This document shows, piece by piece, positions 1 to 48,667 of a stretch of 64,000 bases of DNA; within the stretch, counting starts at the first letter, position 1; every line of letters begins with the position of its first letter. The position numbers and the translations under genes are program-made. Origin of the DNA: Parcubacteria group bacterium GW2011_GWA1_56_13 (GTDB lineage Bacteria; Patescibacteriota; Minisyncoccia; Phycocordibacterales; Phycocordibacteraceae); the NCBI GenBank assembly GCA_001004905.1, contig LCRY01000001.1, forward strand, positions 10,461-74,460. The letters run 5' to 3'. Below the pieces are notes generated by a model that worked only from the letters and a program-made list of their open reading frames with translations, was not told the origin of the DNA and did no database searches.

Positions 1-124
1 ATGCCTCCTGTGGGCCGAATGTATGCCGCCAAACAGCAAGCGGAGTAAAGTGAGTATACTACCATATATGCCTATTTGTCAAGCCCCTGCTCCAGAGCGC
101 CTCTGCCGGTGGTATCATGGGCCG

Positions 125-6399: not shown

Positions 6400-7500
6400 T
6401 TATTGATTCATTGGAGAAACAAGATAAAGGAGTGAGGTATCCCCGACCCCTTTTATGATAAGCGGTCGACCTATTCCTGCGGCAAGTAATGAAATGCTTT
6501 CGGTTGTTGTGAGCGAGAGCGCTGCCAAGAGGTATCGATGATTGAAGGAAAGGTCTAGAGGGCTTCCTGAGATATTCGCGCTCAAGGTTTCCGAGGATTC
6601 GCCGATATCGAAGTTTTTCGCAAAAAAGGAGAAGTTGTTCTTTTTTGGGTTGAAACTGATTTTTACTTTCTGGAACGCATCGGAGAATATTGTCGTTCTT
6701 TTAAGAGCCGTTTCGAAATCCTTTCTAAGCACGACTGCCTCTACGATCGATTCTTTTGGTATGATTTGCCGGTAATCGGGATAGACCGCATTTGTGAGAC
6801 GGGAGACGAACATTCCTTGAGAAGCAACAAAAGCGCATTGATGCTCGTCGAATGACATGATTATATCGTCGTCTGGCAGCGCTTGCGCTATTTCGAGAGC
6901 GTTCTTTGCGGGAATAAGGAATTTACCTTGCGTTCCCTTATTGGAAAGGGGAATTTTTTTCTCTGCAAGGCGGAATGAATCGGTGGCAACGGCTGTTAGC
7001 ACCCCCCCTTCTATAGACATATAAATGCTTGATAATTCGGGGCGAACCATAGAGGAGGACGCACATGGCGCAATGGAGGTAAAAAGGTTTTTTAAGAGAA
7101 CACCAGGAAGCACCACTCTATTTTTTGGATTTTCTGGGAATGGAATGGTTGGAAAATCATCATAAGGGACCGTTTTTATCAAACTTTTGCCCGTACCGCT
7201 CATAAGTGAGACAGTGTCGCCAGTATGCTCGATAGTGATATTTCCTTCCTGGGTGAGCGTTCCTGCTATTTGTTGTAGAACAGCTGCAGGGATCGCAACG
7301 ACCCCATCGCTTATATATTTTCCTTCTAATTTTAGATCGATACCTATTTCGAGATTTGTCGCGCGCATTTTTATACCATCATGTCCGGCAATAATCAGTA
7401 TTGAAGATAAAACAGGAAGTGTCGTATTCTTCCTTTCGGCAAACCTAGACACTTTATACACAGCGTCAGAGAATTCTTTTTTTTCTATTGAAATATTCAT
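6400..7500 (-). CDS. dnaN: DNA polymerase III beta sliding clamp
   Basis: 366 aa; MNISIEKKEFSDAVYKVSRF...LPVLSSILI beta-clamp N-terminus; immediately downstream of dnaA. Confidence 0.9.
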   Translation of the reverse strand: MNISIEKKEFSDAVYKVSRFAERKNTTLPVLSSILIIAGHDGIKMRATNLEIGIDLKLEGKYISDGVVAIPAAVLQQIAGTLTQEGNITIEHTGDTVSLMSGTGKSLIKTVPYDDFPTIPFPENPKNRVVLPGVLLKNLFTSIAPCASSSMVRPELSSIYMSIEGGVLTAVATDSFRLAEKKIPLSNKGTQGKFLIPAKNALEIAQALPDDDIIMSFDEHQCAFVASQGMFVSRLTNAVYPDYRQIIPKESIVEAVVLRKDFETALKRTTIFSDAFQKVKISFNPKKNNFSFFAKNFDIGESSETLSANISGSPLDLSFNHRYLLAALSLTTTESISLLAAGIGRPLIIKGVGDTSLLYLVSPMNQ

Positions 7501-7612
7501 ACAATTCTTATTAAGGGTGTTGGTATTGGGGATATGGTAAAAAAATCAGATTTTATTTGTGCAACATTCCTTTTACTGAGTGCGCAATCTGTTGGTAATG
7601 ATGAAAAATAAC
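7501..7612. promoter_or_regulatory. AT-rich dnaA-dnaN intergenic region, candidate oriC element
   Basis: 112 bp of very AT-rich sequence. Flanked by DnaA-box TTATCCACA at 7659-7667 and GTTATCCAC (reverse) at 7697-7705 just inside the dnaA 3' end. Confidence 0.35.
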
Positions 7613-8962
7613 TCATACAAGTAGGGTACGAATATTTTGTATTTCTTTTGCCAGGTCGTTATCCACAATCACTTCCCGTTTTATCTTCTCACAGGAGTGG
7701 ATAACTGTTGTGTGATCGCGCCCACCAAGTTTTGTTCCTATGGTCGGATACGAAATGCTAAAATCCTCCCGCAAAATATACATAATGACCTGTCTCGGAC
7801 GCACCACTTCTCTTCTGCGTGTTTTTTCATAAATACTTTCTTCGTCAATACCGTAAAATGCCGCCACCTTATCTACAACATTCTTAACCGAGATATTTTT
7901 CTGGGGCCGTGTGAATGAACGAAGGGATTGACGGACTTCGACGATATCTGGAGCGACTCCTTTCACCTGCGCATGGCACACAATACTATTCACCATACCC
8001 TCCAATTCGCGTATAGAGCCGCTCATAGTGGAAGCGACATACTCGACGACCTCATCAGAAAGTATGACGCCATGGGAAGCAGCTTTCTTCCTGGCAATTG
8101 CCATGCGCGATTCAGGATCCGGTTCCCCAATATCAACCGACATACCACTTGCCAAACGGCCTTTTAAACGCTCGGCGATATCGGGGATGGCTACCGGGGC
8201 CCGATCGGAGGAAAAAATGATCTGTTTATTTGTGTCATGAAGAGCATTGAACAGATGGAATAATTCCTCTTCACTCCGCTCCTTCTTCGAAAGAAATTGG
8301 ACGTCATCCATGATGAGAAGGTCATAATGACGGTATTTATCTTTGAACCGATTCGCAGTTCCCGCCTGAACGGCATCGGTGTAATCAATAACGAACTTTT
8401 CGGAGGTGAGGTAATACACCTTACGACCAGGGTATTGTTTTTTGTATTGATTGCCGATCGCCTGGATGAGATGGGTTTTCCCGCGCCCGGTATCTCCGTA
8501 AATAAAAAGAGGATTGTATGTTATACCAGGGCGCTCGAGTGCTGCTTGTGCGGCCGCATACGCGAGATTATTGAAAGAGCCGATAACAAACGTGTCGAAT
8601 GTATATCGTGGGTTCAAATTATCACTTTTATTGATATAGAATTCATCAAGGGGAAGTTCAAGTGCTCCCCGCACGTTCCTTACCTCCTTTAATGCCTTAC
8701 GCCGTTCGTCCTTTACGATGAGATACTCGATATTACGGAACTCATAGGACACATCACGGACTATTTTGAGAAGGAGTGTGTGGAACTTCTTGAGGTACCA
8801 GTCCTTGAAGAACTGACTCGGCACACCGATGAAGATGACACCATCCTCCACCTTCACGATAAAACTGTTGCGGAACCATGTATTGAAATTTGCCGGCGAT
8901 ATCGAGAGTTCCACCTGTGTGAGAATGTATTCCCAGAGCTCTCGAGGATTCCCTTTATCCAT
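7613..8962 (-). CDS. dnaA: Chromosomal replication initiator DnaA
   Basis: 449 aa; Walker A GDTGRGKTHLIQAIGN; AAA+ and C-terminal domain IV; classic dnaA-dnaN with divergent rpmH-rnpA-yidC. Confidence 0.95.
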   Translation of the reverse strand: MDKGNPRELWEYILTQVELSISPANFNTWFRNSFIVKVEDGVIFIGVPSQFFKDWYLKKFHTLLLKIVRDVSYEFRNIEYLIVKDERRKALKEVRNVRGALELPLDEFYINKSDNLNPRYTFDTFVIGSFNNLAYAAAQAALERPGITYNPLFIYGDTGRGKTHLIQAIGNQYKKQYPGRKVYYLTSEKFVIDYTDAVQAGTANRFKDKYRHYDLLIMDDVQFLSKKERSEEELFHLFNALHDTNKQIIFSSDRAPVAIPDIAERLKGRLASGMSVDIGEPDPESRMAIARKKAASHGVILSDEVVEYVASTMSGSIRELEGMVNSIVCHAQVKGVAPDIVEVRQSLRSFTRPQKNISVKNVVDKVAAFYGIDEESIYEKTRRREVVRPRQVIMYILREDFSISYPTIGTKLGGRDHTTVIHSCEKIKREVIVDNDLAKEIQNIRTLLV

Positions 8963-9060
8963 AGTGCCTGGAGTATACTCTTATCGAGAAGGTAAAGCAC
9001 CAATGGTTTTTCCTGGGGAAACTGTTAATATCATGTGCATAACGTAATTTCACAATTTTT
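8963..9060. promoter_or_regulatory. dnaA-rpmH divergent intergenic region (promoters; alternative oriC location)
   Basis: 98 bp between the divergent dnaA and rpmH starts; contains the imperfect box tgtgcataa. Confidence 0.3.
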
Positions 9061-9198
9061 ATGTCAAAACGCACGTATCAGCCGAAAAAAAGGAAGCGGG
9101 CGCGAGCCCATGGCTTCCGTTCGCGCAGATCAACATCTGCCGGACGCAAGATTATGCGGGGTCGGCGACGTATCGGACGCTCTCGATTGTCCGCCTAA
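9061..9198 (+). CDS. rpmH: 50S ribosomal protein L34
   Basis: 45 aa [48 protein letters not shown], not in the ORF track (<60 aa); classic L34 consensus; precedes rnpA. Confidence 0.9.
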
Positions 9199-9203
9199 TC
9201 TTT

Positions 9204-9551
9204 GTGTTTCCACGCCGAAAACGGCTTCCTCGTTCGGCTTTCCCGGCCGCCCTGTCGACCGGCCGGCGTATCTCCTCCGCGCACTTTTCTGCCATCCTCC
9301 CGAAGGAGGCGGAGGGGTATGCCGTCGTCGTTTCGAAAAAAATTGCCCGGCTTTCGGTCGTACGGCATCGTATCAAGCGGCGGGTACTTGAAGCACTTCG
9401 GGGCATTTTGCGCTCAAGGAGGGACATTCCTCCAGCGCTCATACTCTTCCCTAAACAAACGGTAGAAAGGATGGATCATAAAACCATGCAGGAGGAACTG
9501 GAAGTACTTATTTCTAGAACCTCCACTCGGCGGCACGCGGGCGACAAATAG
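9204..9551 (+). CDS. rnpA: RNase P protein component
   Basis: 115 aa basic protein; RLPRSAFPAALSTGRRISSAHFS...VVVSKKIARLSVVRHRIKRRV matches the RnpA RNR-motif region; rpmH-rnpA-yidC synteny. Confidence 0.85.
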   Translation: MFPRRKRLPRSAFPAALSTGRRISSAHFSAILPKEAEGYAVVVSKKIARLSVVRHRIKRRVLEALRGILRSRRDIPPALILFPKQTVERMDHKTMQEELEVLISRTSTRRHAGDK

Positions 9552-9565
9552 CGTACAATACTCCC

Positions 9566-10309
9566 GTGATATCGACTTTTTTTCACGCCGTTTTTTATGA
9601 CCCGATTTATAATGCGCTCGTAGCGCTCGTAGCGCTCGTTCCCGGCTCTGATGTTGGTATCGCGGTCGTTCTCGTTACCATTATCATCCGGCTGATACTG
9701 CTTCCCTTCTCATTATCGGCAGCGCGCACTCAGCGGGCGATGAAAGTTTTGGAGCCGAAACTCAAAGAACTAAAGGAGAAACACAAAGGGAATAAAGAAA
9801 AAGAAGCACTCGAAACCCTTGGGCTCTACCGTGAGGCGCGAGTGAACCCGTTTGCGAGCATCCTTATGGTGTTCATTCAAATCCCCGTTCTGCTCGCCCT
9901 CTACTGGGTTTTCTATTATGAGCCGTTGTCCACCATCAACGTAGCGCAGCTCTACTCATTCACTCCCGTTCCACACGCGGTCTCACTCCAATTCCTCGGC
10001 CTCATATCGGTCGCCGGCAAGAGTTTGGTTCTTGCGGTCCTCGCCGGTCTTACCCAATTCTTTCAGGCGCATATGGCGCTCTCCGGGACGATGAAACCGT
10101 CGGATGCGAAGGGAATTCAGAACGACTTCCAGAGAGTCATGGGGATGCAGCTGAAATATGTATTTCCGTTCATTATCGGTGTTATTTCCTACACGACCTC
10201 CGGTGCCATCGCGCTCTACTTCATCACGACCAATCTTGCTGGTGCCCTCCAGGAGTGGCATGTGCAGCGTGTCATAGCCCGGGAAACCTCAGAGCGAGTA
10301 GCCCCATAA
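9566..10309 (+). CDS. yidC: Membrane protein insertase YidC/Oxa1, short form
   Basis: 247 aa polytopic membrane protein directly after rnpA; conserved YidC core helices. Confidence 0.8.
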   Translation: MISTFFHAVFYDPIYNALVALVALVPGSDVGIAVVLVTIIIRLILLPFSLSAARTQRAMKVLEPKLKELKEKHKGNKEKEALETLGLYREARVNPFASILMVFIQIPVLLALYWVFYYEPLSTINVAQLYSFTPVPHAVSLQFLGLISVAGKSLVLAVLAGLTQFFQAHMALSGTMKPSDAKGIQNDFQRVMGMQLKYVFPFIIGVISYTTSGAIALYFITTNLAGALQEWHVQRVIARETSERVAP

Positions 10310-44555: not shown

Positions 44556-45010
44556 GCCCTTTATAAATATGGCTTATTCATTAAGTATTTCATGGACGGA
44601 TGGGAAAGTCCCATGTCCTTTATCCACAGTATGCACAGCTTTATCCACTTCAACACAAAACAAAAATATACGCAAAAATGACTATTTATTTGAGCGATTC
44701 TCCCAATCACCGCACAAAACCTCGTACGCTCGCTTGTGTGCGGGCTCGTCCACGATGTTCGAACCCGATACATCAATCGGGACCTCAAATTGCTCGAGTT
44801 AATTGACTCGATACAGAAGATAGAAAAAAATGCATTCGAACCCTCTTAGGGAAGTTGCTTGACGGTTAGCGTTCGTTTGTTACTGTCATCGCAGTTCTTT
44901 GATACGTTCAATTTAGGGTTTGCTGTAGCAGAGAGCGGCTTATTCACTTGGCCATTCCCTGCTATGGCAAACCTTCGATCTGAAGGAGTCCGCTGGCACC
45001 CAGCAAAAGG

Positions 45011-45379
45011 ATGATGACGATGCTTGCACGAAAAACTGCATTGATCACGTCTCGAGATCCAAAGGGCCGACAGGCAGTATCTATCTTCGAAGCCGCATAC
45101 AACCATTTAAACCTGAACGAGGGAGAAGCGCAGGTTCTGAACGAGCGCGGCAACAAGCTCAAACAAGGCATTGAACACCTGATTCACATCATCGTTATGG
45201 AACAGGCGCCAAGGGTGAAGGAAAGATGGCGTGTCCGATACCCTCACTCACCTCACGTGGCAGAAGTCGAGATCAAGGAAATCTCCGCGAAGGTTGTTCG
45301 GGTGAAAGAGTGTGGCTTCGGGCCCTTCTACACCTTCAAGATCACCGAGATTGAATTCCTGGAACTGTGCGCTTGGTAA
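45011..45379 (+). CDS. Hypothetical protein
   Basis: 122 aa; no recognisable motif; divergent from yraN across an AT-rich region. Confidence 0.4.
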   Translation: MMTMLARKTALITSRDPKGRQAVSIFEAAYNHLNLNEGEAQVLNERGNKLKQGIEHLIHIIVMEQAPRVKERWRVRYPHSPHVAEVEIKEISAKVVRVKECGFGPFYTFKITEIEFLELCAW

Positions 45380-45746: not shown

Positions 45747-47216
45747 TTGGAAATGCAGTACCGCATTCCGAAAGAGGTTTCAGAAATTTCCAAACGGCTC
45801 AAAGAGGACGGCTATGAGGCATATCTCGTCGGCGGGTGTGTCCGCGACCTCATCATCGGCCTGGAACCTAAGGATTGGGACATCACCACAAGCGCTACCC
45901 CAGAGCAGATCCAGACCGTATTTCCGGATTCTTTTTACGAAAACGACTACGGGACCGTGGGGATAAAAAGCGGCTCCGAAGACAGCAGACTCGCCATCGT
46001 GGAAGTGACCCCGTATCGCGTCGAATCCGGCTATTCTGACAAACGTCGGCCAGATACCGTTCGATTCGGAACTTCCCTGCTTGAGGATCTTGCTCGCCGG
46101 GACTTTACGGTCAATGCCATTGCCCTCGATGTCTCTCAAGGACAACTCGTTGACCCCTATGGCGGTCAAAAGGACATAAAGGACAAACTTATCCGCGCCG
46201 TCGGCAATGCATCGGACCGCTTCGACGAAGATGCGCTCCGCATGCTCCGTGCGGTTCGCTTGGTCGCGGAACTTGGCTTCGGCATAGACGGCGATACGGC
46301 AGCCGCAATAAGCAAAAATAGCAAGCATTTAGGCCGTATTTCTAAAGAAAGGATACGCGATGAATTCGTGCGGATACTCAATTCGAGGCGGCCTATGGAC
46401 GCGCTCGTGCTCGCCAACCAGCTCGGCATCCTCGCATTCATCGTACCCGACCTCGTGCGAGGGATCGGAGTGGAACAGAATCAGGCACACTCGTACGATG
46501 TTTTTGAACATAACCTCCGCACGATGCAGCACGCGGCCGATAAGGAATGGAGTTTTGACATCCGCCTTGCTGGCCTTTATCACGATATCGCTAAACCGGA
46601 AACACGGCGTTGGTCGGAAGAAAAGAACGATTGGACCTTCCATGGGCACGATGTAGTCGGTTCACGTGTAACGAGAAAAGCGCTCGATAACTTCCATTTT
46701 TCACGCGAAACTGGAGAAAAGGTGGTAAAGCTTGTCCGTTGGCATATGTTTTTCTCCGATCCCGAACAAATTACCCTCTCTGCCGTACGCCGGATGATAA
46801 AGAACGTCGGGGAAGAGAACATCTGGGACCTGCTTAATCTCCGAATATGCGACAGGATAGGGACTGGAAGGCCAAAGGAACAGCCGTTCCGTTTCCGCAA
46901 GTACAAAGCAATGGTAGACCAGGCGTTACGGGATCCTATTTCCGTGGCTATGCTAAAGACAGATGGAGCCAGAATAATGCAGAAGTTCCACGTGAACCCC
47001 GGTCCGGTCATTGGGTATACGCTTCACGCGCTCCTTGAAGAGGTTCTTGATGATTCGGCCAAGAACACCGAGAAGTATTTGGATAAAAGAACCGAAGAAC
47101 TACTCAAACTGCCAGAAAACGAATTAAAAAAGCTCGGGGAAGCAGGGAAGGAACGTCGGGAAGCGGCAGAAGATGAGGAAATACAACGCATAATGGAGAA
47201 ACATCACGTGTGCTAA
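45747..47216 (+). CDS. cca: CCA-adding tRNA nucleotidyltransferase with a C-terminal HD domain
   Basis: GGCVRDLIIG...DWDITT polymerase-beta head motif; RDFTVNA; HD domain; 489 aa. Confidence 0.85.
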   Translation: MEMQYRIPKEVSEISKRLKEDGYEAYLVGGCVRDLIIGLEPKDWDITTSATPEQIQTVFPDSFYENDYGTVGIKSGSEDSRLAIVEVTPYRVESGYSDKRRPDTVRFGTSLLEDLARRDFTVNAIALDVSQGQLVDPYGGQKDIKDKLIRAVGNASDRFDEDALRMLRAVRLVAELGFGIDGDTAAAISKNSKHLGRISKERIRDEFVRILNSRRPMDALVLANQLGILAFIVPDLVRGIGVEQNQAHSYDVFEHNLRTMQHAADKEWSFDIRLAGLYHDIAKPETRRWSEEKNDWTFHGHDVVGSRVTRKALDNFHFSRETGEKVVKLVRWHMFFSDPEQITLSAVRRMIKNVGEENIWDLLNLRICDRIGTGRPKEQPFRFRKYKAMVDQALRDPISVAMLKTDGARIMQKFHVNPGPVIGYTLHALLEEVLDDSAKNTEKYLDKRTEELLKLPENELKKLGEAGKERREAAEDEEIQRIMEKHHVC

Positions 47217-47224
47217 CACATGAG

Positions 47225-47838
47225 CCTTCGATTGGTTAATCCCGAGGTAATCCAAATAGTATGTGAAATCTGATTCACGCGAAACAGATATGGGAACAAA
47301 AAAGCCGCTCAAGGTGGCCGAGGCGTAAAAGGAGCAGGGGCGTAAATGGTGCCTCAAGGCCGGAGAATGTAGAGCGGCTTTTAGTTTGAAGGAGCGCTTT
47401 CACGTGGAATACCATGCCGAAGGGCTTGTGTCGCGGATCGCCGCGGAGCGTTGGCAGGCACCTCATTTAGCGCTTTGATAGAAAGAACTGGGAAGGAACT
47501 CCCCGGTGCGCCAAGCAGAACCCGGCGTACCCTGGAGTAAATGTATTCCTAGTAAAGGACATTGTAAAGGACACATCTGTGGATAGTGTCCTTTAGTATC
47601 AACCCTGCAGGTTCGGTGTTAAAATTAGTGTGGAAGTGCAGGGCAGATAATAGCCGACGAGAGCGACGTTGATGACGGCCTTCGTCGCATTTCTCCAGAC
47701 CGTCTACGGGGCTTCCCATAGGACCAGGTGAACTCGCTGACGACTTCCTGGTTCCCGAAGGGCAGCAACGATTAACGAGATGGTGGCCAGTCGTCAGGGT
47801 TTGCCATCATTGAGGCCCCACGCGGGGCCTTTCTTTTT
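47225..47838 (+). ncRNA. Candidate structured non-coding RNA region, possibly RNase P RNA and/or another stable RNA, ending in an intrinsic terminator
   Basis: No credible ORF across about 600 nt; dense nested stems, e.g. aaaagccgctc (47296-47306) with gagcggctttt (47369-47379), and ctgacgac (47736-47743) with gtcgtcag (47791-47798); gcagaacccggcgta at 47514-47528 resembles RNase P CR-V ACAGAACCCGGCUUA; terminator aggccccacgcggggcct plus T-run at 47813-47838. Confidence 0.3.
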
Positions 47839-47869
47839 AATTTTAATTCGATGAAACGGGGCAGTAGTC

Positions 47870-48667
47870 CTATGTCGCGAGGGTAATCGCGACCGGACAA
47901 TGATCGGAGCCGTAAATATCTGGGTAGATGTCGGCTTTTTTGACGCGCTTTACGAACTCGTTCACGACGAAGAAATAATCAATGCGCCAGCCAACGTTGC
48001 GGTCGCGCGCACGAGTGAATAGATCCCAATAGGTATATGCCTCGCGCCTGGCGGGGAAGAAGTGGCGATATATATCCACGTACCCGGCACTGATAACTTC
48101 GTCTATCCAGGCGCGCTCCTCGGGCAAAAATCCGGTATTCTCCTCGTTTTCTTTCGGCCGCGCGAGGTCTATCTCTTCGTGAGCGGTGTTCAAATCGCCG
48201 CAGAAAATGACCGGTTTCTGCTTGCGTAATGTCTCGGCGAATGTGAGGAATGCGTCGTAAAAACGCAACTTGTAATCAAGCCGTTCAGGACCCTGCCCGG
48301 CATTAGGGAAATAGACGTTTAAAAGCCAGAAGTCCTCATATTCGGCCCCAATAAAGCGCCCTTCCTGGTCGAATTCTTTTATGCCCATGCCGTAGATGAC
48401 CGAGAGCGGCTCAATTTTTGAGTAGAGAGCGACGCCGCTGTAGCCCTTCTTGATCTGACAGGAGGAAAAAAACGCCGAATAGCCGACAGGGGAGAGCAGC
48501 GCTTCAGGAAGCTGCTCCGGTGCGGCTTTTGTCTCCTGTAGGCAGAAAATATCCGGTTTCGTACCCACCAGAAACGATTCCCAGTAACCATTCTTCGCAA
48601 GCGACCGCAGCCCGTTGACATTCCACGAGACGATGCGGATGGAGCTCATTTTGTCCCATTTTATCAT
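47870..48667 (-). CDS. xth: Exodeoxyribonuclease III (AP endonuclease, EEP family)
   Basis: IVSWNVNGLRS N-terminus; C-terminal SDHCPV; 265 aa. Confidence 0.85.
   Translation of the reverse strand: MIKWDKMSSIRIVSWNVNGLRSLAKNGYWESFLVGTKPDIFCLQETKAAPEQLPEALLSPVGYSAFFSSCQIKKGYSGVALYSKIEPLSVIYGMGIKEFDQEGRFIGAEYEDFWLLNVYFPNAGQGPERLDYKLRFYDAFLTFAETLRKQKPVIFCGDLNTAHEEIDLARPKENEENTGFLPEERAWIDEVISAGYVDIYRHFFPARREAYTYWDLFTRARDRNVGWRIDYFFVVNEFVKRVKKADIYPDIYGSDHCPVAITLAT

Follow-up and report, generated by a model that had tools for sequence, protein, structure and literature searches.

The locus considered here lies within a 64,000-nt stretch of the genome of Parcubacteria group bacterium GW2011_GWA1_56_13, referred to below as the window, and comprises the interval between two convergent genes, cca and xth. 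The cca gene (45747-47216, plus strand) encodes the CCA-adding enzyme, with the PolyA_pol head and HD domains of Pfam, and xth (47870-48667, minus strand) carries the Pfam domain Exo_endo_phos. The 653-nt interval at 47217-47869 is bounded by the 3' ends of both genes. A first-pass annotation described it as free of open reading frames (ORFs) and highly structured, and proposed at least one structured non-coding RNA, perhaps a novel one or an RNase P RNA, extending over about 600 nt of the plus strand. Conservation and covariation uphold a structured RNA, but the strand, length and terminator had been misjudged. The evidence points to a predicted small RNA (sRNA) of about 245 nt at 47289-47533 on the minus strand, and neither the 600-nt extent nor the plus-strand orientation is borne out. 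The host is a Kaiserbacteria-like member of the Patescibacteria (candidate phyla radiation, CPR). Its CCA-adding enzyme is at most 84% identical to proteins from metagenome-assembled genomes of Candidatus Kaiserbacteria/Paceibacteria, and identical contigs of the same strain originate in groundwater metagenomes.

Conservation was assessed by comparing the sequence downstream of cca in 80 loci around cca homologues from Kaiserbacteria/Paceibacteria relatives. Only the part at about 47256-47596 is conserved. More than 50 loci have this element, as detected with nhmmer, directly downstream of cca and with the same orientation, and the gap between cca and xth in relatives is often just 280-330 nt long and filled by it. 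A covariance model, R1 (246 positions, 35 pairs), was built from 23 compact sequences. The model has a single match in the window, at 47289-47546 on the minus strand (176.5 bits, E 7e-44), and exactly one match per locus in 65 of the 80 related genomes, always convergent with cca. The element starts between -4 and about 100 nt from the cca stop codon and always follows it directly. A scan of metagenomes with a loop/terminator pattern yielded 19 contigs, all of which contain a full-length R1 match (151-201 bits); the RNA is convergent with cca in every one that extends far enough. The same pattern gave no copy in viral contigs. The RNA adjoins cca in at least 84 genomes and contigs of related, ultra-small bacteria from groundwater (65 genomes and 19 metagenome contigs).

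The element is non-coding. As the first-pass annotation had noted, the interval holds no plausible coding sequence: all ORFs overlapping 47217-47869 are at most 77 amino acids long, and no period-3 signal is present. The period-3 spectral power of the homologues is 1.06 times the median, versus 205 times in the last 300 nt of cca from the same genomes, which served as a control. In addition, 641 of 817 pairwise insertions and deletions in the element are not multiples of three. A small ORF starting from AAGGAG...AUG in the plus-strand loop was rejected, as the AUG is not conserved and no coding signal is found.

The predicted RNA consists of a variable 5' part, a central domain and a long 3' hairpin, all on the minus strand. 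Its 5' end is placed at about 47533, 7 nt after the -10 box, and its 3' end in the U-tract at about 47289-47299. The 5' part contains a hairpin insertion (GGUACGCC...GGCGCACC, 47505-47531), predicted by folding of the window sequence and missing or different in relatives, and a conserved CU-rich stretch, GUUCCUUCCCAGUUCUUUC (47481-47499), with invariant G, C and T alignment columns and the family consensus GUUCUUUC...AUCUUUC. The central domain (47393-47474) is closed by helix H6, formed by AGCGCU at 47469-47474 and AGCGCU at 47393-47398. In this helix, 73% of the alignment cells are paired, all four pairs show double changes, and manual inspection reveals covariation between GCGC/GCGC, GCAC/GUGC and GUGC/GCAC. 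Inside it, at 47412-47458, helices H4a (CCUGCC 47453-47458 with GGCAUGG 47412-47418; 85% of cells paired, double changes in 6/6 pairs) and H4b (47447-47449 with 47424-47426) enclose hairpin H5 (CGCGG-CGAU-CCGCG, 47432-47445). In the R1 alignment, 90% of the H5 cells are paired and all five pairs show double changes, one position being CG in 30 sequences and GC in 23; RNAalifold applied to a MAFFT alignment finds covariation in 4/4 pairs, with one pair CG in 22 and GC in 20.

The 3' hairpin (47300-47382) is formed by H1 (47372-47382 with 47300-47310) and H2 (47351-47361 with 47316-47324) and is followed by the U-tract, as in an intrinsic terminator. H1 has 95.7% of cells paired and double changes in nine of ten pairs in the R1 alignment, and compensatory changes in seven of nine pairs when RNAalifold is run on MAFFT alignments independent of R1. 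The inner stem H2 has 53 distinct sequences among the 58 analysed. It carries a 26-nt apical loop, ACCAUUUACGCCCCUGCUCCUUUUAC (47325-47350), with near-invariant C columns that define the conserved C-rich motif GCCCC-N2-3-(G)C(U/C)CC. Across the family, the loop is 22-30 nt long; the motif lies within a large apical loop (at least 20 nt) in most of the 58 sequences, and about 12 fold with a loop of only 7-10 nt surrounding it.

The four inverted repeats that had been listed for the interval are all present, although several of their coordinates were off by up to 7 nt. The correct positions are 47300-47310 (aaaagccgctc) with 47372-47382 (gagcggctttt), 47432-47445 (cgcggatcgccgcg), 47603-47609 (ccctgca) with 47637-47643 (tgcaggg), and 47737-47744 (ctgacgac) with 47790-47797 (gtcgtcag). 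The first two correspond to H1 and H5 and have covariation support in 44-65 homologues, and the last two fall in the part of the interval that has no homologues.

Covariation in the related intergenic regions, which had been suggested as a check, is extensive. Canonical combinations occupy 82.4% of the pair cells in the R1 alignment versus 69.6% in shuffled alignments, and 29 of the 35 pairs show double changes. The number of compensatory cells is 259, compared with 82 after shuffling, and none of 500 shuffles reaches the observed value. When the 3' partners are slid as a control, pairing falls to 42-52%. The well-aligned helices H1, H5 and H4a stand on their own, independently of the fitting of the alignment to the model. 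A mutual-information scan of this model-fitted alignment for extra helices was too noisy for use. The absence of conservation or covariation had been named as grounds for abandoning the RNA; conservation and covariation were both found.

The assignment to the minus strand is based on the conserved promoter, the asymmetry of G.U pairs, the stability of the fold and the apparent inversion of the locus as a unit. Read on the minus strand, H1 in the R1 alignment contains 38 G.U versus 4 A.C cells, and all helices together 159 versus 89; on an independent MAFFT alignment, the ratio for H1 is 24 versus 1. When the 35-pair consensus structure is evaluated on both strands, the minus strand gives the more stable fold in 44 of 65 sequences (p = 0.001). 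The conserved core has a folding z-score of -2.46 as minus-strand RNA and of -0.58 as plus-strand RNA, so the term "highly structured" suits this core, but the rest of the interval folds only modestly well. On the minus strand, a conserved U-rich tail follows H1. Two distant relatives, L072 and L073, have the promoter on the opposite strand with respect to cca, and the gap in L073 also closes with a terminator-like hairpin on the promoter strand. The unit appears to be inverted as a whole in these loci; for L073, which is not an R1 match, this reading draws on the promoter and hairpin signals alone.

These data also bear on the possibility that the element is no separate gene but belongs to the plus strand as part of the cca mRNA, forming its structured 3' untranslated region (3' UTR) or terminator region. 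Its constant place directly after the cca stop codon is what such a region would show, H1 has a U-rich tail on the plus strand as well, and the small hairpin UUUC-ACGU-GGAA pairs better there. Raw folding energies are also lower for the plus strand (53 of 63 sequences), an effect of its G/A-rich composition. However, on the plus strand H1 would bear 38 A.C mismatches, the z-score is the weak one given above, and the conserved promoter points in the opposite direction in 75 of 80 loci. In L072 and L073, the promoter is on the other strand relative to cca, in the latter with a matching terminator-like hairpin. Genomes of CPR/Patescibacteria are about 1 Mb in size, and a conserved 3' UTR of 300 nt would be unusual in one of them. 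An origin of the element as part of the cca mRNA is consequently quite improbable.

The promoter lies immediately upstream of the RNA on the minus strand and was identified by a promoter scan and in homologues. The -10 box is TACATT (47540-47545; family form TAnnnT), with the first T in 50, the A in 60 and the last T in 57 of 63 homologues, and the -35 box is TTTACA (47563-47568), separated from it by a 17-nt spacer. The pattern TTTACN-16..18-TAnnnT fits 75 of the 80 loci, and the consensus upstream of the R1 matches, GTTATCCACAGGGGTGTCCTTTACAATGTCCTTTA..., contains the same -35 box, spacer and -10 box. The promoter is better conserved than the RNA itself. A DnaA-box-like sequence, CTATCCACA (TTATCCACA in most relatives), is located at 47578-47586 and starts 17-18 nt upstream of the -35 box. 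A DnaA box with at most one mismatch is found in 72 of the 80 loci (exact in 40), and in 62 of 68 loci it keeps this offset. The box is enclosed by an inverted repeat, TAAAGGACAC/GTGTCCTTTA (47565-47595), which overlaps the -35 box, and a third TAAAGGACA copy occurs at 47553-47561. The DnaA box lies in the loop of an inverted repeat, AAAGGACAC/GTGTCCTTT. Because the outer arm holds the xth stop codon in most relatives, the repeat is probably an old xth terminator stem that overlaps the RNA promoter. The sequence arrangement suggests that DnaA may regulate the RNA promoter.

A related arrangement was observed in the distant relatives L070 (5470-5790, minus strand), L069 and L080, which keep the DnaA box and the TGTCCTTTACA promoter at the same position. 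The RNA predicted downstream is about 300 nt long and of different sequence (start GGUAGGCCCAGAAAGGGCGAGCA...). It includes the C-rich stretch CCACCCC and a long hairpin of the terminator type, has no Rfam match and scores under the R1 threshold.

The segment between the promoter region and xth (47597-47869, about 270 nt) is ORF-free and not conserved. It has no homologue in the 80 loci or the 19 metagenome contigs and no repeat within the window, and it is identical in the same-strain contigs. It folds modestly better than shuffled sequences (z -1.95 on the plus and -2.57 on the minus strand). Besides the last two inverted repeats mentioned above, it includes the plus-strand terminator-like hairpin at 47812-47838. 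A terminator scan confirms this signal (47812-47831 plus a T-run), but the hairpin, which the first-pass annotation placed at 47813-47838 and took as the end of the region, is not part of the RNA. A short plus-strand transcript ending at 47838 is possible. A remnant of the xth 3' end was rejected as the source of the segment, as a tblastn search of 47597-47869 found nothing but a 6-amino-acid echo. Directly past the xth stop codon, 47846-47869 on the minus strand translates as DYCPVSSN*, reminiscent of the DHCPV motif at the C-terminus of xth; this may be a small duplication at the gene end.

In 7 of the 19 metagenome contigs, 0.7-3.5 kb are inserted between xth and the RNA promoter. Several of the inserts in L091, L094, L095, L100 and L103 contain small ORF pairs resembling a Phd/YefM antitoxin and a RelE/ParE toxin. 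The position upstream of the RNA promoter is an insertion hot spot, and 47597-47869 is treated as lineage-specific filler or a decayed insert that is no part of the RNA. Because the inserts separate the RNA from xth and not from cca, the RNA travels with cca and keeps its own promoter. This is relevant to the possibility that the RNA, which shares its strand with xth, is no independent gene but the 3' UTR of xth or a product processed from that UTR. In most relatives, xth does lie immediately upstream on the same strand, with its stop codon inside the upstream motif. Yet the sequence between xth and the RNA has a conserved -35/-10 pair of canonical form, and the RNA and its promoter stay beside cca despite 0.27-3.5 kb of sequence inserted before xth. 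Furthermore, the RNA is found beside cca in five of the seven full-length loci in which tblastn detects no xth within 1.5 kb downstream (L010, L012, L025, L027, L065). A dependence on xth transcription is therefore improbable.

The conserved sites around the promoter also raise the possibility of an element acting mainly at the DNA level, in which the DnaA boxes, the TAAAGGACA repeats and CACGTG palindromes would be binding sites for proteins, as in an operator cluster or in the control of replication. Each locus has two copies of the palindrome GTTnCACGTGnAAC, one on either side of the terminator hairpin. In the window, a degenerate copy lies at 47274-47285, between the cca stop codon and the RNA 3' end, and the second copy at 47399-47409, inside the RNA. 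The symmetric variants GTTCCACGTGGAAC, GTTACACGTGTAAC and GTTTCACGTGAAAC are found in relatives, and in some of them the internal copy is swapped for an unrelated hairpin. Candidate roles of the palindrome are an RNA hairpin, a kissing pair or an operator. Its symmetric variation, the strikingly conserved DnaA box and repeats, and a similar motif pair 2.9 kb away at 44614-44649, where gene orientation switches, would all be expected of DNA sites. However, these motifs cover only the promoter-proximal 60 nt and two 12-nt sites, and DNA sites leave unexplained why the remaining 200 nt or so change by compensatory substitutions, with G.U pairs that are strand-asymmetric. The window also has dnaA-dnaN with its own DnaA-box cluster at 6.4-9.6 kb, and for this reason a replication origin at the cca-xth locus was rejected. 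A purely or mainly DNA-level element is very improbable.

The origin-type region of the window has the classic gene content between 6400 and 10309: dnaN (6400-7500, minus strand), dnaA (7613-8962, minus), rpmH (9061-9198, plus), rnpA (9204-9551, plus) and yidC (9566-10309, plus). DnaA boxes are clustered at 7454-9042, and the stretch at 6-9 kb has a low GC content (0.44). Another conserved non-coding element, GGGAAAGTCCCATGTCCTTTATCCACAGTATGCACAGCTTTATCCAC, was noted at 44600-44650 on the plus strand. It comprises a TGTCCTTTA motif and two DnaA boxes, one exact (44620-44628) and one with a single mismatch (44641-44649), and is kept upstream of cca in many relatives. At this point, the prevailing gene orientation changes from minus to plus and the local GC skew reverses its sign; the element could be a DnaA-controlled promoter or an origin-related site. 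At 44904-44987 (plus strand), a long near-perfect hairpin precedes an uncharacterised ORF (45011-45379), and Rfam returns only spurious microRNA-precursor matches for it.

Known RNA families were searched with Rfam 15, at gathering thresholds over the whole 64 kb and in a permissive mode (E up to 10) on 47150-47920 and on the relatives L004 and L061. At gathering thresholds, only four tRNAs were found. The permissive search of 47150-47920 gave no match below E = 1, with 47217-47730 entirely free of matches, and that of L004 and L061 gave no match in the conserved core. The covariance-model check that had been suggested for RNase P RNA, transfer-messenger RNA (tmRNA), signal recognition particle (SRP) RNA and 6S RNA was thus negative throughout. 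The earlier rejection of tmRNA was right: ARAGORN reports only the four tRNAs, and neither ARAGORN nor Rfam finds a tmRNA with its tRNA-like domain and tag frame. SRP RNA was rejected for lack of an Rfam or domain IV match, and 6S RNA on both Rfam and fold, the latter being multi-domain with unpaired termini and no rod with a central bubble. A hammerhead or k-turn reading of CUGAUG...GAAAG was also rejected, as there is no stem II and no Rfam match.

RNase P RNA deserves separate consideration, since it was the specific lead of the first-pass annotation: a reduced or highly divergent form on the plus strand, with CR-V near 47515 and the terminator at 47813-47838. The genome does encode rnpA, next to rpmH, as had been stated, hence an rnpB gene must exist, and the neighbourhood is tRNA-related (cca, and four tRNA genes in the window). 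The CR-V motif had been reported as a 12/15 match at 47514-47528; a match exists, and is actually 13/15 at 47515-47529, but it is at chance level. With up to three mismatches, the window contains 2 such matches versus 1.17 expected, and 30% of shuffles equal this. Moreover, the match lies inside the hairpin insertion, which is missing from most relatives and has another sequence in those that possess it. Visual inspection of the plus-strand family consensus shows a loose resemblance of GAUG...AAAGAACAnCCG to CR-IV/CR-V and of GAAAAGGAGCAGGGG to CR-I. Against this, no RNase P model matches at gathering thresholds in the 64 kb, nor at E up to 10 in 47150-47920 or the two relatives. CR-I (GGAAAGUCC) is absent from the element, both in the window and in all 80 loci, and its only match in the window, at 44603, is outside the element. 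For a P4-like pairing of the apical loop with a far segment, a permutation test gave -10.97 kcal/mol with a sequence's own partner and -10.64 kcal/mol with those of others (median rank 21/44), and consequently no co-evolution. The RNA 5' and 3' ends do not pair, which leaves no P1; all folds and the covariation agree on a local hairpin of 83 nt at the 3' end. Finally, the promoter, the terminator and the G.U asymmetry all indicate the other strand. RNase P RNA is rejected for this locus, its presence here being barely credible. Because rnpA is present and this locus is not its RNA partner, the real rnpB must lie outside the window, elsewhere in the genome, and the rnpB of this lineage is still to be located. 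Literature searches yielded no account of the RNA described here, and none of RNase P RNA or of structured RNAs in CPR.

Taken together, it is very likely that an RNA gene exists at this position. It is likely, judging from the sequence, that 47289-47533 on the minus strand is an autonomous gene for a structured sRNA of about 245 nt, belonging to an undescribed family of Kaiserbacteria-like Paceibacteria. The features of an autonomous sRNA gene are present in the sequence: an own promoter (75 of 80 loci), a hairpin followed by a U-tract, conservation and non-coding character. Transcription would start at the sigma-70-type promoter (-35 TTTACA, 17-nt spacer, -10 TAnnnT). The RNA would then fold into its three parts: the variable 5' part with CU-rich stretches, the central domain (H6, H4a, H4b and H5) and the long 3' hairpin (H1 and H2). 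The GC-rich H1 with the U-tract would serve as the intrinsic terminator of the RNA; the 3' hairpin is probably bidirectional and would also end the convergent cca mRNA, and it would present the conserved C-rich loop. The transcribed strand is pyrimidine-rich, with the conserved CU-rich segments GUUCUUUC, AUCUUUC and UUUCUC in addition to this loop. For its function, the preferred but low-confidence guess is action in trans: the exposed C-rich loop and the CU-rich single strands would pair with or bind G-rich partners, either RNA or protein, and the RNA may be part of an RNA-protein complex.

Several observations weigh against the sRNA gene or its proposed mode of action. The transcript, its ends and its abundance are all predictions. 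The covariation counts of the R1 alignment come from an alignment fitted to the model, and the helices described make up a partial secondary structure, in which H7, the 5' hairpin and the part played by the CACGTG palindrome are tentative. The central helices H4 and H5 show no G.U asymmetry, and the UUUC-ACGU-GGAA hairpin favours the plus strand, as described above. With respect to targets, pairing of the loop with the start regions of the 54 genes in the window, and thus within 64 kb only, shows no excess (-9.9 versus -9.4 +/- 0.6 kcal/mol for shuffled loops). Shine-Dalgarno motifs are nearly absent, GGAG occurring upstream of 3 of the 54 genes. Pairing with the cca start region shows no excess in a crude whole-RNA duplex calculation.

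A role as an anti-Shine-Dalgarno sponge found no support, given the Shine-Dalgarno-poor genome and the lack of pairing excess among these 54 genes, and antisense control of the cca start region gave no signal in the crude calculation. As a separate observation, the 54 long ORFs of the window are mostly leaderless-looking or Shine-Dalgarno-poor, the GGAG count referring to positions -20 to -4. The commonest words just upstream of their start codons are TATAC, ATACT and GTATA, which resemble a -10 box (TATACT).

The complex structure under purifying selection, the conserved promoter with its fixed DnaA box and the constant place beside cca suggest an important role. To our knowledge, almost nothing is known about the non-coding RNAs of CPR/Patescibacteria. 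The candidate new sRNA family provides a concrete, testable RNA for metatranscriptomics and for structure/function work in CPR. A more specific and unlikely reading is that of a Paceibacteria-specific housekeeping RNA controlled by DnaA through the fixed-position box at about -50. If this were true, replication status would be linked to RNA-protein function in ultra-small symbionts, and the RNA might, for example, be the functional counterpart of 6S or another "universal" RNA, or a scaffold compensating for missing protein functions.

The predicted RNA may be compared with several known systems. With bacterial RNase P RNA (RF00010/RF00011), it shares the character of a stable structured RNA of a few hundred nucleotides, in a tRNA-maturation neighbourhood and an RnpA-encoding genome. 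It differs in having no covariance-model match, CR-I, conserved CR-V, P1 or co-evolving P4, in the local terminator hairpin that forms its 3' end, and in its pyrimidine-rich transcribed strand. 6S RNA (RF00013) is likewise a housekeeping-type RNA of about 200 nt with a sigma-70-type promoter, from a family often missed in divergent phyla; here, in contrast, the ends are unpaired, and both the rod with a central bubble and an Rfam match are missing. In RsaE/RoxS of Bacillales and 6C RNA of Actinobacteria, conserved C-runs in apical loops pair with G-rich mRNA sites. These RNAs resemble the one described here in the C-runs of their hairpin loops and in being autonomous genes with a promoter and an intrinsic terminator. 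The present RNA, in contrast, exceeds them in length by a factor of 2-3, possesses an additional conserved multi-helix domain and has no sequence or Rfam similarity to them. It also occurs in a host nearly free of Shine-Dalgarno sites, with no target enrichment found among the 54 genes of the window. Finally, like bidirectional terminators between convergent genes, the GC-rich H1 lies between an A-tract and a T-tract, with cca on one side and the RNA gene on the other. In contrast to such terminators, its stem of about 20 bp and its conserved 26-nt loop go far beyond the needs of termination.

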